This document shows, piece after piece, positions 1 to 6,260 of a stretch of DNA of 64,000 nucleotides (within the stretch, counting starts at the first letter, position 1; every line of letters starts with the position of its first letter). Position numbers and translations under genes: made by a program. The notes beneath the pieces are model-generated. The model was not told the origin of the DNA. It did no database searches and was given only the letters and a program-made list of their open reading frames with translations. The DNA comes from Planctomycetota bacterium (lineage in GTDB: Bacteria; Planctomycetota; UBA1135; UBA2386), in assembly GCA_965228735.1 (NCBI GenBank), contig OZ245838.1, positions 6,368,001-6,432,000 on the forward strand. Reading direction: 5' to 3'.

Positions 1-1
1 A

Positions 2-2371
2 GCCAACGCGTACACGCAGGCGGAGAAGTTCGGCGACGCCGCGCGCCATCTCGAGGCCGAGGCCGATTGCCTGCTCGATCAGAACGAGCCGAACAAGGCC
101 GCGCGCAAGCTGCTCGAGCTGCGTCAGATGCTGCCGACGTCGCTGTCGGCGCGCGAGAAGCTCGCCGACATCGCGCTCGACCACAACCTGTCGCTGCCCG
201 ACTTCGACGCTCTGGCCGAAGGCAAGGAGATCGTCGAACTGCTGCTCGCGTTCGGCGACGTCGAGCGCGTGCGGGCGCTGCTCGAGCGGCTGCTCGTCGT
301 CGTGCCGGACGACCTCGACCTCAAGAAGGCGCTCATCAGCGTCCACATCAAGGCCGGGGACCAGCAGCGCGTCGCGGAGCTCTACGAGGCGATCGCCGAA
401 GATCTGGTCGAAGCCGGCCAGCCGCTCGAGGCCGTTGGCTACCTGCAGAAGATCCTGCTCATGGATCGCAGCCGCACCGACATCTCGGCGCGGGTGCGGG
501 AGCTCTACGAATGCGACGAGCGGGCGCGACGGCGGATGCGCATCCTGGGTGCGCTGGCCTGCCTGTTCTGCGTGCTCGTCATCGGCGGCGCCTTCTACTG
601 GTTCTACAACGAACGGGCGAAGCAGGAGTTCGAGAAGATCGACGTGCGTGAACTCGTCGCGCACCAGGACTTCGCCGGCGCGGCGATCGCCTACCGGGAC
701 TTCGTCAATCAGTTCCCGTTCACGTCGGTCGTCGGTCAGGCCGAGAACGAGCTGAAGCGCATCGAGGCCGAGCAGAAGAAGTTCGACGCCAAGCTGGCGG
801 CCGAGCGCGCCGAGCGGCAGCGCGAGATCGACCGGTTGCGCCGCGAGTACAAGAAGGGCTGGAAGCTCCACCGCGAGCAGTTCCTCGACGGCGCGCCGGC
901 CGAAGCCATCGAGACCCTGCGCAAGGTGCGCGAGCAGCTCGAGGCCGCGGGCGCGGCGGAGGACGTCGCGTGGGCGCTGGAGAACGAGGTCGAGCGCCAC
1001 TGGCAGCGGCTGCAGGACTACGTGAACAACGCCAACGAGCTCGCCGTGCAGTACAACAAGGCGCTCGAGGGTGGTGACTGGCAGCTGGCGCGCGAGCACG
1101 CGCTGCACCTCAAGGACAAGTACGAGAACACCGAGGCCAACCGCAAGGTGCACGTGCCGGTGATGATCCGCACGCAGCCGCCCGGCGCCAAGCTGATGCA
1201 CCGCGGGAAGCCGCTGACGCAGAACGTCGACGGCGAGACGGAGCCGCTCGTGACCCCGACGCTGATCTACTGCGCCGATGCGCTCACGCCGGTCGAGCTC
1301 ACGACGGAGCTCGAGGGTTTCGAGAGCAGCACGATCACCGTGCAGCCGATCAAGGATGGTGAGGTCGCGGTCGTGCTCACGGTCGTGCCGGCGCGCCGGC
1401 TCGACTTCCCCGTGCCGCTGCAGTCCGGGATCACCTCGGCCGGCGGCTGGCTCGCGGTCGGCCTGCGCAGCGGCAAGCTCGGCATCGCGAGGACCGATGG
1501 CAGCGGCCAGCGGGTGTTCGACCTGCCGGGTCTCAAGGAGCTGAGCTCGGCGCCGCAGATCTCGACCAACCGGCTCTATTTCGTGAGCAACGAGAACACG
1601 ATCGAGTGCCTCTCCCTCACGACCGCGAAGCCGGTGGCCGGCTGGCCCGCCGCGCTGCCGAACGGCGCCGCGACGGAGCTCGTGGTCGGCGGCGGTCGCC
1701 TCGCGGTGATCGACGGCGCCTACGTCGTGCATTGCTGGGAGCAGGGGCGCGGTTCGCACCTCTGGTCCGTGTCGCTCGACAGTGCGCCCGCGGGGCCGCC
1801 GACGATGGCCGGCCGCAACCTGCTCGTCGGGACGAACGACGGGCGCGTGCTGAACATCGATGTCACGAACGGACGGATCCGCAACGTGCTGCGGACGCGC
1901 GAGAGCCTGAGCACGCGGCCGTTGACCGACGGCAAGATCGTCGTGTTCGGCTGCTCGTCGGGCCTCGTTCGCGCGATCGAACTCGAGACCGGCCGGGTGC
2001 TCTGGGATCAGCAGCTGCCCGCGAAGGTCGTCGACGGCACGCTGATGCTCGCGAGCGGCCACGTCGCCTGCGCGCATGGCCGCGAACTCGTCGTTTGGAA
2101 CCGCGACACCGGCACGGAAGCCGGGCGCCGCGACCTCGGCGCCGAGGTCCAGCCCGGGATGGGGCTGCAGGGCGATCAGCTGCTCGTGCGCGTTCGGCGC
2201 AAGAAGGAGGGCCGACGTCGCACGCGCGACGTGCTCGTCGCCGTCGACGTCGCCAGCGCCAACGTGCTCTGGGAATACGAGAGCGAGACCGTCAGCCCCG
2301 GGGCTTTCGGTGTGGACAGCATGTCGATCGCGTTCCCGGGCGCGGAGAACCAGGTGGTGTTGTTCCGCTAG
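2..2371 (+). CDS. Large TPR-repeat membrane protein with PEGA-like segment and C-terminal PQQ-like beta-propeller (5' truncated by window edge)
   Basis: The frame of ORF 128..2371 is open back to position 2. It has TPR-like helical repeats, one TM helix (ILGALACLFCVLVIGGAFYWFY), a coiled coil, a PEGA-like VMIRTQPPGAKL, then repeated propeller motifs (TGRVLWD, GSHLWS, ANVLWEY). Confidence 0.75.
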   Translation, partial: ANAYTQAEKFGDAARHLEAEADCLLDQNEPNKAARKLLELRQMLPTSLSAREKLADIALDHNLSLPDFDALAEGKEIVELLLAFGDVERVRALLERLLVVVPDDLDLKKALISVHIKAGDQQRVAELYEAIAEDLVEAGQPLEAVGYLQKILLMDRSRTDISARVRELYECDERARRRMRILGALACLFCVLVIGGAFYWFYNERAKQEFEKIDVRELVAHQDFAGAAIAYRDFVNQFPFTSVVGQAENELKRIEAEQKKFDAKLAAERAERQREIDRLRREYKKGWKLHREQFLDGAPAEAIETLRKVREQLEAAGAAEDVAWALENEVERHWQRLQDYVNNANELAVQYNKALEGGDWQLAREHALHLKDKYENTEANRKVHVPVMIRTQPPGAKLMHRGKPLTQNVDGETEPLVTPTLIYCADALTPVELTTELEGFESSTITVQPIKDGEVAVVLTVVPARRLDFPVPLQSGITSAGGWLAVGLRSGKLGIARTDGSGQRVFDLPGLKELSSAPQISTNRLYFVSNENTIECLSLTTAKPVAGWPAALPNGAATELVVGGGRLAVIDGAYVVHCWEQGRGSHLWSVSLDSAPAGPPTMAGRNLLVGTNDGRVLNIDVTNGRIRNVLRTRESLSTRPLTDGKIVVFGCSSGLVRAIELETGRVLWDQQLPAKVVDGTLMLASGHVACAHGRELVVWNRDTGTEAGRRDLGAEVQPGMGLQGDQLLVRVRRKKEGRRRTRDVLVAVDVASANVLWEYESETVSPGAFGVDSMSIAFPGAENQVVLFR

Positions 2372-2405: not shown

Positions 2406-3506
2406 ATGCAGCTCATTCAACGAATGAAGATCTGGAAGGAGCTCAAGCGGCTCGAGATTCGAGTCCGTGAGGAGCCCTCCCCGACGACGTTCGTCGATCT
2501 GGGCCAGGTCTACATCAACCTCGAGAGTTACGACAAGGCGCTGCGCGTCGCGGAGGACGGGCTCGCGCTCTTCCCGAAGGCGAGCGAGATGAAGAAGCTG
2601 CTCGACACCGCGCGTCGCGGTCTCGGGAAGCAGCGCGCCACCGAGCTCAAGGCCAAACTCATCCGGTCGCCGAGTCCGAAGCTGTTCCGCGAGGTCGCGG
2701 AGCTGCAGATGGACCTCGGGGACGTCGCGGCGCTCAACCAGACCTGCCAGGAGTGGAGCCTGCGCTTCCCGGACGACGCGGGTGCGTGGCTACTGCTGGG
2801 TCAAGCGCGACTGCTCGGCTTCTACCGCGACCTCGCGGCGCGCGAAGGGCGCGAGGCGGTGCGGTGCCTCGACCGCGCGATCGAGATGAAGGGCGACGAC
2901 GAGCAGGCCCACCGGCTGCTCGGCGAGGTCCTCTACCGGGTCGGCGCCGTGAAGCAGTCGATGGAACACCTCGAGGTCGCGAAGGGTCTGCACCGCGGCG
3001 ACTCCGAGCTCGAGCAGCTGCTCAAGTACGTGGCCGGGCTCGAGGACAAGGGCATCGACGTCGAACAGCTGTTCGTCGAGGTCGAGGAGCGCGGCAGCCT
3101 GATGCACCCGCCCGCGGCGGCGGCCGGCGGCGCCGGCGAGATGGGCGTGACGAGCATCCGCGAGGCGCTCGGTCACATCGCGGACATCGAGGGCGTGACC
3201 AAGGCGACCTACATCAAGGGGTCGCGCGCGCTCGTCAAGGGTCAGATCAAGGACGGTCGCGACCCGTTCCTGCGGATCGTGCGCGTCATCGCCAAGGCGG
3301 CGCATCGCTTCGGTCGCCGGCTCGACATCGGCAACGCGTGCAAGAACGTCGTCGACGGCGAGTTCGGGCACATCTGCGTGTGCGTCTACGGCGAGGTCCT
3401 CGCCGGCGTGCAGTGTGAGAAGGGCACCGATCTCGAGCTCGTGCTCGGCGAGCTCCAGGAGATCGTCGCGGGTTCGCTGACGCCGATGGGAGGGACGAAC
3501 TCGTGA
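2406..3506 (+). CDS. TPR-repeat protein with C-terminal Roadblock/LC7-like domain
   Basis: N-terminal TPR motifs (DLGQVYINLESYDKAL, AWLLLGQA, AHRLLGEVLY). The last ~115 aa have a Roadblock-like alpha/beta pattern. Its stop overlaps the next start (GTGA). Confidence 0.7.
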   Translation: MQLIQRMKIWKELKRLEIRVREEPSPTTFVDLGQVYINLESYDKALRVAEDGLALFPKASEMKKLLDTARRGLGKQRATELKAKLIRSPSPKLFREVAELQMDLGDVAALNQTCQEWSLRFPDDAGAWLLLGQARLLGFYRDLAAREGREAVRCLDRAIEMKGDDEQAHRLLGEVLYRVGAVKQSMEHLEVAKGLHRGDSELEQLLKYVAGLEDKGIDVEQLFVEVEERGSLMHPPAAAAGGAGEMGVTSIREALGHIADIEGVTKATYIKGSRALVKGQIKDGRDPFLRIVRVIAKAAHRFGRRLDIGNACKNVVDGEFGHICVCVYGEVLAGVQCEKGTDLELVLGELQEIVAGSLTPMGGTNS

Positions 3507-3871
3507 AGTCGATCCAGGATGTCCTGAAGGAGCTGTACGGCAGCGGCGGGATCAAGGGGGCGGCGGTCGTCACGCTCGACGGTCTCGTGGCCGCGGGCGA
3601 GCTCGACGAACGCTTCCACTCCGACGTCGTCGGTGGGCTCGCGTCGTTCCTCGTGATGACGATGAACCGGAGCCTGCGCGAGGGTGGGCTCGGCGACTGC
3701 GAACAGTTCCTGCTGCACGCGACCCATGGCAAGGTGGTCCTCGCCGCACTGGGCGAGTCGTACCTCGTCGTGATCTTCGATCAGTTCGCGGACACCCAGA
3801 AGGTGCGCACCGATGTCGATCGGGCCGCCACCCGGCTGCGCGAGCTGTCGCGCCTCGGCTCGGCGAGCTGA
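3503..3871 (+). CDS. Roadblock/LC7 domain protein (MglB/MglC-like)
   Basis: 122 aa; GIKGAAVVTLDGLVAA and flanking helices fit the Roadblock/LC7 pattern; lies next to mglA. Confidence 0.85.
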   Translation: MKSIQDVLKELYGSGGIKGAAVVTLDGLVAAGELDERFHSDVVGGLASFLVMTMNRSLREGGLGDCEQFLLHATHGKVVLAALGESYLVVIFDQFADTQKVRTDVDRAATRLRELSRLGSAS

Positions 3872-4111
3872 CGCCGCCCGCCTCGCGGGCCGCCGGGCGC
3901 CTGCGGGCAAACCCGCACCCGGCGCCTCCGGTCCGGCTTCCGGGACGGCTGCGGCGCTGGTGAATCCGGCCGCGATCCGCCCCGCCGGCGTCTCAATCCG
4001 AGCGCACCTGCAACCTTCCTAAAGCGACGTTTCTGCGCGCGTCGATGAGGGATGTGGCGAGACGGTCGGGGGACCGTTCGACCACACCACCAGCTCGCAA
4101 CGGCTACACCA

Positions 4112-5098
4112 ATGGTTCAGATCAACTTCGCACTCAAGGAAGTCAACTGCAAGGTCGTCTTCTATGGCCCCGGGATGAGTGGCAAGACCACGAATCTCGA
4201 GATCGTTCACCAAAAGGCTCCCGAAGAGAACAAGGGCGAGCTCACCTCGATCTCCACGGACGGTGACCGCACGCTGTTCTTCGACTTCATGCCTCTCGAC
4301 CTCGGCAACGTGGCGGGCATGCGGACGAAGTTCCAGCTCTACACGGTGCCGGGTCAGGTCTACTACAACTCGACCCGCAAGCTCGTGCTGCAGGGTGTCG
4401 ACGGCGTCATCTTCGTCGCCGACTCCGATCCGGACAAGGTCGACGAGAACATCGAGTCGTACTCGAACCTGATCGAGAACCTGGCGGAGTACGGCAAGGA
4501 CATCCGCGAGCTGCCGCACGTCATCCAGTACAACAAGCGCGACCTGCCGAATGCACTGCCGGTCGCCGAGCTGGACAAGGCGATGAACAAGTTCGGTGTG
4601 CCGACCTTCGAGGCCGTGGCCTACACGGGCGAGGGCGTCTTCCCGACGCTCAAGACGCTCGCCGCGATGGTCCTCGAGAGCATCGAGAAGGTCGATGGCC
4701 GCAACCCGCGCAAGGCCGCTGGTGGCGGTGCGCGCCAGGCTGCCGCGGCACCCGCCGCGCCCGCAGCTGCCGCCGCGGCCGCGCCGGCCGCTCCGGCTGC
4801 CGCTGCCCCGGCCGCACGGGCGCCCCGCAAGGCGACTGCCGGTGCCGGTGGCCAGCGCAAGGGTGCAGGTCGCCGGTCGGCAGCGGGTGGCCGCGCCGCA
4901 GCGGGCGGTCGCGCCCAGGCCGGTGGTCGCGCTCCCGGTCGCCGCGCCGCGGCCGGCGGCCGCGCTGGCGGCAAACGCGCTGCGGCTGCTGCCCAGAAGA
5001 AGGGTGGCAGCATGGGGCTCGTGGTGGGTCTGACCGTCACGCTGCTGATCGCGGCGGCCGGTGTGGCCTACTTCTTCCTCGGTGACCAGCTGGGCTGA
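4112..5098 (+). CDS. mglA: MglA-family small Ras-like GTPase with Ala/Pro- and Gly/Arg-rich linker and C-terminal TM helix
   Basis: INFALKEVNCKVVFYGPGMSGKTTN, DRTLFFDF, YTVPGQ and NKRD closely follow Myxococcus MglA. The ATG at 4112 matches the family N-terminus. Confidence 0.93.
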   Translation: MVQINFALKEVNCKVVFYGPGMSGKTTNLEIVHQKAPEENKGELTSISTDGDRTLFFDFMPLDLGNVAGMRTKFQLYTVPGQVYYNSTRKLVLQGVDGVIFVADSDPDKVDENIESYSNLIENLAEYGKDIRELPHVIQYNKRDLPNALPVAELDKAMNKFGVPTFEAVAYTGEGVFPTLKTLAAMVLESIEKVDGRNPRKAAGGGARQAAAAPAAPAAAAAAAPAAPAAAAPAARAPRKATAGAGGQRKGAGRRSAAGGRAAAGGRAQAGGRAPGRRAAAGGRAGGKRAAAAAQKKGGSMGLVVGLTVTLLIAAAGVAYFFLGDQLG

Positions 5099-5109
5099 GG
5101 AGGCGACCC

Positions 5110-5622
5110 ATGGGCGACAAACTCTCGAAGAACGAGAAGCTGCGGTACGACCGCCTGACGTTCTACAAGGACGACATCGAGCGCATCGACAAGCTGCTCG
5201 CCGAGTTCTTGCGGTTGTCGGGCGCCAAGTGCGCGCTGCTGATCGACAAGGAAGGTCACCTCGTCACCAAGCGTGGCGAACTCCGCACGATCGACATCGA
5301 TACGATCTCGGCGCTCGTCGCCGGTTCGTTCGCGGCGACGAAGGAGATGGCCAGGCTGCTCGGTGAAGACGAGTTCACCGCGATGTTCCACCAGGGTGAG
5401 CGCGACAACATCCAGCTCTCGCTCGTGGGCGATCGCACTCTGCTGACGATCCTGTTCGACGATCGCACGACCGTCGGCATGGTTCGCCTCTACGCCGGTG
5501 AAACGGCGAAGAAGCTCGCCGAAGTGTACCGCGATGCGATGTCACGCGGTGACGAGACCCCCGATCTCGGTGACGGCTACGGCGAAGCGAGCAAGGGCGC
5601 GCTCGACAAGCTGTTCGACTGA
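5110..5622 (+). CDS. mglB: MglB-family GTPase-activating Roadblock/LC7 protein
   Basis: AKCALLIDKEGHLV, ISALVAGSFAATKEMARLLGEDEF, FHQGERDNI, LFDDRTTVGMVRL and the acidic C-terminal helix (LDKLFD) follow Myxococcus MglB; RBS GAGGAGG. Confidence 0.93.
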   Translation: MGDKLSKNEKLRYDRLTFYKDDIERIDKLLAEFLRLSGAKCALLIDKEGHLVTKRGELRTIDIDTISALVAGSFAATKEMARLLGEDEFTAMFHQGERDNIQLSLVGDRTLLTILFDDRTTVGMVRLYAGETAKKLAEVYRDAMSRGDETPDLGDGYGEASKGALDKLFD

Positions 5623-5653
5623 GATCGTCGGACGTTCCGACTGACGTTGCACT

Positions 5654-5694
5654 GCGGCCACCGGGACTTCGGTTCCGGTGGCCGCGCTGGTTTT
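5654..5694 (+). terminator. Probable terminator hairpin after mglB
   Basis: 14-bp stem GCGGCCACCGGGAC / GTTCCGGTGGCCGC closed by a C-UUCG-G tetraloop, with TTTT shortly downstream. Confidence 0.65.
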
Positions 5695-5789
5695 GCACTG
5701 CGTGTTCGAAGTTGTTGGCAGCGTCGAGGTGTCGTGCTGTGCGCGGTCCGGATTCGGCTCGAACCGACGCGTTCGAACCCGGTTCCACC

Positions 5790-6101: not shown

Positions 6102-6260
6102 ATGGCTGCCAGAAAGAAGGCCACCAAGAAGAAGGCGACCAAGAAGAAGGCCACCAAGAAGAAGGCCACGCGCAAGAAGGCCACCAAGAAGAAGGCGACC
6201 AAGAAGAAGGCCGCCAAGAAGAAGAAGAAGGCGACCCGCAAGAAGGCCGCCAAGAAGTAG
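6102..6260 (+). CDS. 52-aa lysine-rich histone H1-like nucleoid peptide (KKKAT pentapeptide repeats)
   Basis: ATG..TAG translates to MAARKKATKKKATKKKATKKKATRKKATKKKATKKKAAKKKKKATRKKAAKK. It has an RBS, a downstream terminator and variation at synonymous positions between repeats. Too short for the ORF track. Confidence 0.85.
   Translation: MAARKKATKKKATKKKATKKKATRKKATKKKATKKKAAKKKKKATRKKAAKK

Follow-up and report, generated by a model that had tools for sequence, protein, structure and literature searches.

The window, the whole 64,000-nucleotide stretch of planctomycete DNA analysed here, encodes at 4112-5098 on the forward strand a 328-residue Group-1 MglA which, by its sequence, combines an intact catalytic set with a long basic linker and a predicted C-terminal helix. 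This MglA probably works fixed to the cell membrane, and we put the probability at about 0.7 that it is a membrane-fixed switch which the adjacent MglB turns off. Judged from its relatives, the predicted tail-anchored design is standard across much of Planctomycetota. To our knowledge MglA has so far been studied only as a small free-floating protein, and the anchored variant of the MglA/MglB switch, conserved as it is, is apparently undescribed in print.

The protein consists of the following parts:

4112..4690, + strand: MglA G domain, residues 1-193, with K25, R53, T54, T78, Q82 and NKxD all intact
4691..5008, + strand: disordered linker, residues 194-299, Ala/Pro and then Ala/Gly/Arg repeats, net charge +20, KKGG at its end
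5012..5080, + strand: predicted transmembrane helix, residues 301-323, from hydropathy, a high-pLDDT helix and a position conserved in relatives
5081..5098, + strand: tail GDQLG and stop codon, five residues without cysteine, read from the sequence

The initial annotation had described an intact MglA G domain followed by about 100 residues of linker, a hydrophobic helix and a five-residue tail, and this layout holds throughout. The P-loop (GPGMSGKTT), D52-R53-T54, TVPGQ82 and NKRD are all present, and the best PDB matches of the G domain are M. xanthus MglA (E 3e-73), to which residues 1-193 align gap-free. The G motifs that characterise Group 1, including the intrinsic arginine finger R53 as well as T54, T78 and Q82, are found here, and so is the genomic coupling to an MglB roadblock GAP, as seen from the MglB match and the neighbourhood counts given below. 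The catalytic residues (K25, R53, T54, T78, Q82 and NKxD) are invariant in all 82 aligned rows. The start at 4112 is preferred over the longer start at 4052 from the ORF finder, as M1-V2-Q3 is invariant among relatives.

The linker of 106 residues contains 46 Ala, 22 Gly, 8 Pro, 21 Lys/Arg and a single acidic residue. The helix that follows has a best 19-residue Kyte-Doolittle mean of 2.26 and is the sole strongly hydrophobic stretch of MglA; all top hydropathy windows lie on residues 300-323, and the protein begins with the first strand of the G domain. AlphaFold2, run with an 84-row alignment, predicts a confident G domain to residue 195, coil over 196-299 and a helix at 300-324, with a pLDDT of 85-94 over residues 301-320. 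This model was used instead of the single-sequence model, which was poor (mean pLDDT 39.7). When the model is searched with Foldseek, ranks 1-14 are MglA chains, the best being 6izw_A (E 2.8e-27, TMt 0.93). Helix calls here and in the relatives come from our own hydropathy script together with AlphaFold and not from a dedicated TM predictor; the hydropathy cut-off was 1.6 in the initial surveys and 1.3 in the final recount. By hydropathy and AlphaFold, the single hydrophobic helix of MglA lies no more than about 30 residues from the C-terminus, and by hydropathy, the start of the fold and the positive-inside pattern the protein has a cytoplasmic N-terminus and no other transmembrane segment, as expected of a tail-anchored protein.

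Codon positions 1 and 2 of the linker have a very high GC content (0.92 and 0.88), and the whole extension might be an assembly or frame artefact of such DNA. We regard this as refuted, with a negligible residual chance, because more than 100 relatives have the same architecture and because positions 3400-5700 of the window recur identical and unbroken in contigs of two runs from two studies, either of which may be the source of this DNA.

The tail-anchored MglA proposed initially is conserved far beyond this genome. Our script finds the C-terminal hydrophobic helix in 115 of the 120 best database proteins, and four of the remaining five look truncated. The named-genome set comprises 80 loci, nearly all titled Planctomycetota, of which 17 run off their contig; 61 of the 63 complete loci are tail-anchored, the exceptions being L047 and L074. 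MglA was detected in 229 of 401 Planctomycetota genomes. The phylum set of 109 loci was drawn from the 150 best-scoring listed matches (243 further matches lie outside it), so it leans to close matches, and some of its genomes are also in the named-genome set. Thirteen of its loci are open-ended and two have unknown residues, leaving 94 complete. Among these best-scoring matches the helix is present in 89 of 94 loci, from 37 of 40 Planctomycetota families, at the cut-off of 1.3; at 1.6, four borderline helices fell out. The outcome that the initial annotation had named as speaking against its proposal, homologs that stop right after the G domain, is not what the two sets contain.

In the 89 helix-bearing phylum relatives the linker is 80-303 residues long (median 130), and its net charge is positive in 86, with a median of +11, i.e., moderately basic. 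A polybasic linker of AAGGR repeats had been noted at first; the charge stands for the window's protein (net +20), but the repeats are local to this genome and not conserved among relatives. On average, 2.6 Lys/Arg residues stand in the 12 positions before the helix vs 0.7 after it, and they are more numerous before the helix in 69 relatives, equal in 19 and fewer in one. An N-in/C-out orientation of the helix fits, because the basic residues precede it. The helix is followed by at most 30 residues in 80 of the 89 relatives and by more than 30 in nine, none has a cysteine among its last six residues, and the helix sequence drifts freely while its hydrophobicity is kept.

The helix could instead serve to bind proteins or to oligomerise, or be a sorting signal that is cleaved off, the active MglA being soluble. 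Its Ala/Gly-rich, moderately hydrophobic composition and the GG directly before it would suit such a role. The free drift of sequence under constant hydrophobicity argues against it, as do the nine relatives with more than 30 residues beyond the helix, and we consider it improbable. GlyGly-CTERM and PEP-CTERM sorting signals consist of a motif, a TM helix and then a basic cluster on an exported protein; a signal of this kind was rejected, since NCBIfam gives no sorting-signal match and the basic residues stand before the helix, not after it.

Small GTPases that attach directly to the membrane by a C-terminal tail are commonly regarded as a eukaryotic feature. K-Ras4B and Rab, with their hypervariable tails, and tail-anchored Miro have a G domain, a flexible linker and a C-terminal anchor beside basic residues; the prenylated K-Ras and Rab proteins end in a CAAX or di-cysteine motif, and Miro has two GTPase domains with EF hands. 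The window MglA resembles them in its G domain, flexible linker, predicted C-terminal membrane anchor and adjacent basic residues, but it has neither CAAX nor prenyl cysteine, neither EF hands nor a second GTPase domain. A prenylated GTPase of the K-Ras/Rab type was rejected, as all 89 relatives lack a cysteine in the last six residues, and Miro was rejected because MglA has one G domain and no other Pfam family. The likeness is convergent, the G domain being that of MglA. Of the parallel to K-Ras, Rab and Miro drawn initially, the anchor beside basic residues survives; K-Ras is only a loose analogy, given that the AAGGR repeats are confined to this genome and that a CAAX motif is missing. Closer counterparts are tail anchors and MinD-type peptides.

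In the control phylum, that of the genome G401, the helix is absent from all 30 best loci, which comprise 12 canonical MglAs of short length and 18 with extensions that are mostly acidic. Within that phylum, 17 extended MglAs among L242-L269, whose linkers are mostly acidic, have in common a short C-terminal motif that resembles a beta-hairpin, with alternating hydrophobic residues; it is a third type of tail, distinct from a membrane helix. One of the two exceptions above, L047 (G401:C8:433-1701, from a genome titled Acidobacteria), lies inside the TM clade in a quick tree, yet has an acidic tail without a helix. Its G domain is 77% identical to that of the window MglA and the same roadblock gene precedes its mglA, with no mglB match downstream; transfer and misbinning are both possible. 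In two planctomycete families, f15 (L149, L162, L165, L181, L183, L186, L187) and f24 (L117, L124), 29-119 residues follow the helix, which would make a bitopic protein with a low-complexity outer tail. Several of the f15 loci have a large DUF4388 gene downstream of mglB.

One Planctomycetota class, large and rich in closed genomes, has no MglA in any of its 121 genomes that are at least 90% complete. It probably represents the cultivated Planctomycetia, and its lack of MglA may explain why the anchored form was overlooked. In the openly accessible literature searched, we found no description of a membrane-anchored MglA, and a search for MglA in Planctomycetota gave no paper. The string 'planctomy' has no match in the main text or searchable supplement of the survey PMC4316618, and 'Mgl' or 'MglA' has none in the main text of the planctomycete papers checked. 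In its accessible part, a preprint of 2026 that deals with archaeal ArcoA refers to the MglA proteins as a cytosolic family (10.64898/2026.07.23.738820).

The mglA gene is the fourth of five in an operon with the order DUF4388-TPR-propeller, TPR-roadblock, roadblock, mglA, mglB, which the initial annotation had overlooked. Its other elements are:

1..2371, + strand: 3' part of the DUF4388-TPR-propeller gene, 1068 aa, which starts 835 bases before the window
2406..3506, + strand: TPR protein with C-terminal roadblock, 366 aa, matching Pfam TPR families
3503..3871, + strand: stand-alone roadblock/LC7 protein, 122 aa, PF03259 E 4.4e-09
5110..5622, + strand: mglB, matching PDB MglB over its whole length (E 4.7e-39), C-terminal helix present
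5653..5696, + strand: terminator-like hairpin of 15 pairs and a T run which closes the operon, a consensus match only

The 1068-residue protein contains DUF4388/PATAN (PF14332, E 1.3e-18), TPR (TPR_14) and a C-terminal PQQ-type beta-propeller (PF13360, E 6.4e-20), with one hydrophobic segment read by eye from the sequence. The roadblock domain of the 366-residue protein, at about residues 250-359, was detected by aligning it with the next gene in hhalign (probability 97.9, E 3.7e-13). The 122-residue roadblock matches the profiles of the 7yh1, 9jue and 7f8m roadblock chains (1e-16), MglB (3e-05) and MglC (0.011). It was rejected by sequence as an MglC orthologue, the MglC match being weaker than those to MglB, LAMTOR2 and other roadblocks. 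In the C-terminal helix of MglB, L165, D166 and F169 are nearly invariant. The mglB gene follows mglA, an order that is reversed in Myxococcus. Just past the terminator, a 52-aa ORF at 6102-6260 (+) with Lys/Ala repeats (KKATKK) resembles a small histone-like DNA-binding protein.

The operon is conserved with the tail. The following counts are for the named-genome and phylum sets, use profiles built from the same loci and include only loci with enough flank. They give mglB downstream of mglA in 59/61 and 89/94 loci, the stand-alone roadblock upstream in 78/78 and 106/109, the TPR-roadblock gene in 77/77 and 76/79, and, where there is room, the large DUF4388-TPR-propeller gene upstream in 71/72 and 15/19.

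The operon holds the only two Pfam roadblock matches of the genome. The only other MglA of the genome (G000:C1:1677927-1679816, - strand) has an acidic linker and, by eye, a histidine-kinase-like C-terminal part, and it lacks R53, the arginine finger being replaced. The organism therefore appears to have no soluble canonical MglA. Genomes of the window's family likewise show two MglA matches. No sigma-70 promoter match was found upstream of mglA. RNA-library contigs contain only small shares of the words of the mglA region; a contig from a relative joins the end of the G domain to mglB with 449 letters between (450 here) and a second covers the helix into mglB, although such contigs cannot show transcription.

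We consider it very likely that the following arrangement applies as a whole: the helix would lie in the cytoplasmic membrane N-in/C-out, the G domain would be held on a flexible cytoplasmic leash, and the MglB dimer would position R53 and Q82 for hydrolysis as in Myxococcus. The linker would let the G domain reach partners some nanometres away. According to the available text of PMC6785124, the C-terminal helix of Myxococcus MglB adds exchange activity via MglA K181, K185, L64 and I67; in the corresponding pocket of the window MglA, K181 and L64 are kept and position 185 is Ala (Lys in Myxococcus).

The chances are about even that the two upstream roadblock domains act together as a second regulator and that, at the same time, the DUF4388-TPR-propeller protein is a membrane-spanning partner. 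The regulator is suggested because heteromeric roadblock complexes act as GEFs or GAPs in other systems (PMC9481161, the part available), and the partner because the Myxococcus effector of MglA for pili is a TPR protein (PMC7519303, the part available). Since an anchored GTPase cannot cycle through the cytoplasm, spatial information would lie in a local MglA-GTP patch, whose position follows that of the regulators, and not in movement of the protein. Permanent membrane binding and a mechanism other than pole-to-pole switching, both asserted initially, are in our view proposals only.

The anchored MglA might still change poles or patches by lateral diffusion and landmark capture, Myxococcus-like but slower, the anchor only raising the local concentration. 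This would agree with the gap-free alignment of the G domain to M. xanthus MglA and the completeness of MglB, and relatives whose amphipathic ends are reversible could bind and leave the membrane in cycles. A TM anchor should hinder redistribution, because stronger membrane binding flattened the B. subtilis MinD gradient, in a different system (PMC13537761, the part available), and we regard such relocation as rather unlikely.

A similarly doubtful alternative is that the operon serves to signal across the membrane, in the manner of the actinobacterial conservons or Rag-Ragulator. The propeller would detect something in the periplasm, the roadblocks would pass the signal on, and MglA would act on envelope remodelling, division or gene expression instead of motility. 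The conservation of the five-gene operon across many families and its three roadblock domains speak for it, together with the GEF or GAP activity of heteromeric roadblock complexes elsewhere (PMC9481161), the division of planctomycetes without FtsZ (PMC12673574, in its accessible text) and the fact that PilT does not track MglA. However, the operon has no kinase or DNA-binding gene, the large gene is absent upstream in 4 of 19 long loci, and the Group-1 MglAs studied to date act on pili or gliding, as far as the available text of PMC7519303 reports.

The output of the membrane-fixed switch may, by analogy to other Group-1 MglAs, be cell surface behaviour (type IV pili, MreB-linked shape or motility), a suggestion we hold at somewhat below even odds. 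The genome has type IV pilus ATPases and MreB, and another DUF4388 gene (G000:C1:1558510-1560563) lies directly upstream of a PilT-family ATPase gene. PilT-family genes occur in 392 of 401 Planctomycetota genomes, including those without MglA; their distribution does not point to the MglA output, because PilT is near universal. In the window's order, a single PilT-family match is found in the three MglA-less genomes of family f3 and two to five in the remaining genomes, a comparison of few genomes with genome size as a confounder.

The closest known systems are the Group-1 MglA/MglB pairs of M. xanthus and Thermus thermophilus (PDB 5ymx, 6h17, 6izw, 3t12), which share the gap-free G domain, R53/T54/T78/Q82 and the MglB C-terminal helix. 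Some Group-1 members also have a PATAN/DUF4388 neighbour, according to the accessible part of Wuichet and Sogaard-Andersen (PMC4316618). Unlike these pairs, the window MglA has 135 extra residues ending in the predicted TM helix, mglB is downstream, and the operon adds two roadblock domains and a putative membrane TPR-propeller protein. In the text available, the PMC4316618 survey excluded GTPases longer than 240 aa, yet its Table S2 lists longer Group-1 members; with 328 aa the window MglA falls outside the survey's range (single domain, 150-240 aa). For example, Fibrobacter succinogenes Fisuc_0226, a long 'MglA2' of 313 aa, is listed with mglB downstream in the accessible parts of PMC3000849 and PMC4316618 Table S2, and so resembles the window MglA in having a C-terminal extension and mglB downstream, a likeness drawn from the published listing and not from sequence.

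More distantly, Haloferax ArcoA/DipA and Asgard ArfR are, in the available parts of 10.64898/2026.07.23.738820 and 10.1101/2024.02.28.582541, also prokaryotic Ras-superfamily GTPases that bind the membrane by a helix of their own. However, they are archaeal and Arf/SRbeta-related, and their helix is N-terminal, amphipathic and reversible. The C-terminal membrane-targeting helix of B. subtilis MinD, as described in the accessible text of PMC13537761, resembles the basic-aromatic amphipathic peptide that follows a flexible linker in relatives of the window MglA. The window MglA differs in having a full hydrophobic helix, and MinD is an unrelated ATPase.

These relatives suggest that the anchor type can be exchanged, a point absent from the initial annotation. 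Among the 150 best 50%-identity representatives, 49 are tail-anchored, 8 have a helix and a longer tail, and 93 have no helix. A MinD-like basic-aromatic peptide ends 35 of the 84 long-tailed representatives without a helix, and 49 fail the pattern, which was defined after the tails had been inspected. The pattern is found in 0 of 834 internal windows and has at most 4 occurrences in 200 shuffles. One cluster with the peptide includes TET95591.1, named as Zixiibacteriota. At the position of the helix, this peptide is likely membrane-sticking. Of 80 metagenome loci, 61 have a short MglA, 8 the peptide, 3 a helix and 6 other extensions, while 2 are open. In the peptide-form loci mglB is downstream in 8/8 and a roadblock just upstream in 6/8; most of the short-form MglAs have mglB upstream.

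In all five genomes of families f11 and f47 the operon is kept and MglA ends in a basic amphipathic PxF(K/R)KF(K/E)K, not in a helix, with a hydrophobic moment of 0.70-0.85. These tails do not match the MinD-like pattern and were set apart as a separate amphipathic motif. The genomes hold 3-11 MglA-like matches. Among their loci (L211-L240, in G008, G176, G098, G047 and G073), the tree joins all eight paralogues tested to the operon copy; short basic ends and long fusions are among the paralogue tails.

A G-domain tree of 69 rows, rooted on canonical short MglAs, unites the forms with mglB downstream and those with the peptide in a single clade (98/90; for the representative proteins in it, gene order is not available). 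All helix forms are one clade (100/98) inside the mglB-downstream clade, and f11/f47 fall within the helix clade (96/88). The TM rows form a clade apart from f11/f47 in 0 of 200 bootstrap trees, but the AU test does not reject this arrangement (p = 0.223). Going by the tree, the helix form has a single origin and f11/f47 likely lost the ancestral helix. The helix forms on the one hand and the MinD-like and f11/f47 amphipathic ends on the other therefore suggest that a membrane anchor is kept while its type changes.

It appears that an entire lineage of bacterial MglAs has an anchor of its own, a permanent one in most of the Planctomycetota families sampled and a reversible one in relatives. 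The two kinds offer a natural test of whether a polarity switch must cycle through the cytoplasm, and the operon is a concrete candidate regulator in a phylum with unexplained FtsZ-less division and membrane dynamics. As a long shot, it can be speculated that bacteria arrived by themselves at a hypervariable tail in the style of Ras/Rab, one whose anchor can be exchanged. The anchor of Planctomycetota would then have become a permanent membrane helix, and MglA, a roadblock heterodimer, MglB and a membrane-spanning PATAN-TPR-propeller receptor would make up a Rag-Ragulator-like platform that writes GTP-state patches on the cytoplasmic membrane to steer shape change, membrane remodelling or FtsZ-free division, while f11/f47 would have returned to a reversible peptide, multiplied the GTPase and rewired it for dynamic membrane work.

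A related cassette of TPR, DUF4388, two roadblocks and mglA occurs at L279, L284, L306, L324 and L331; its MglA is short and tailless and branches beside the tailed lineage.
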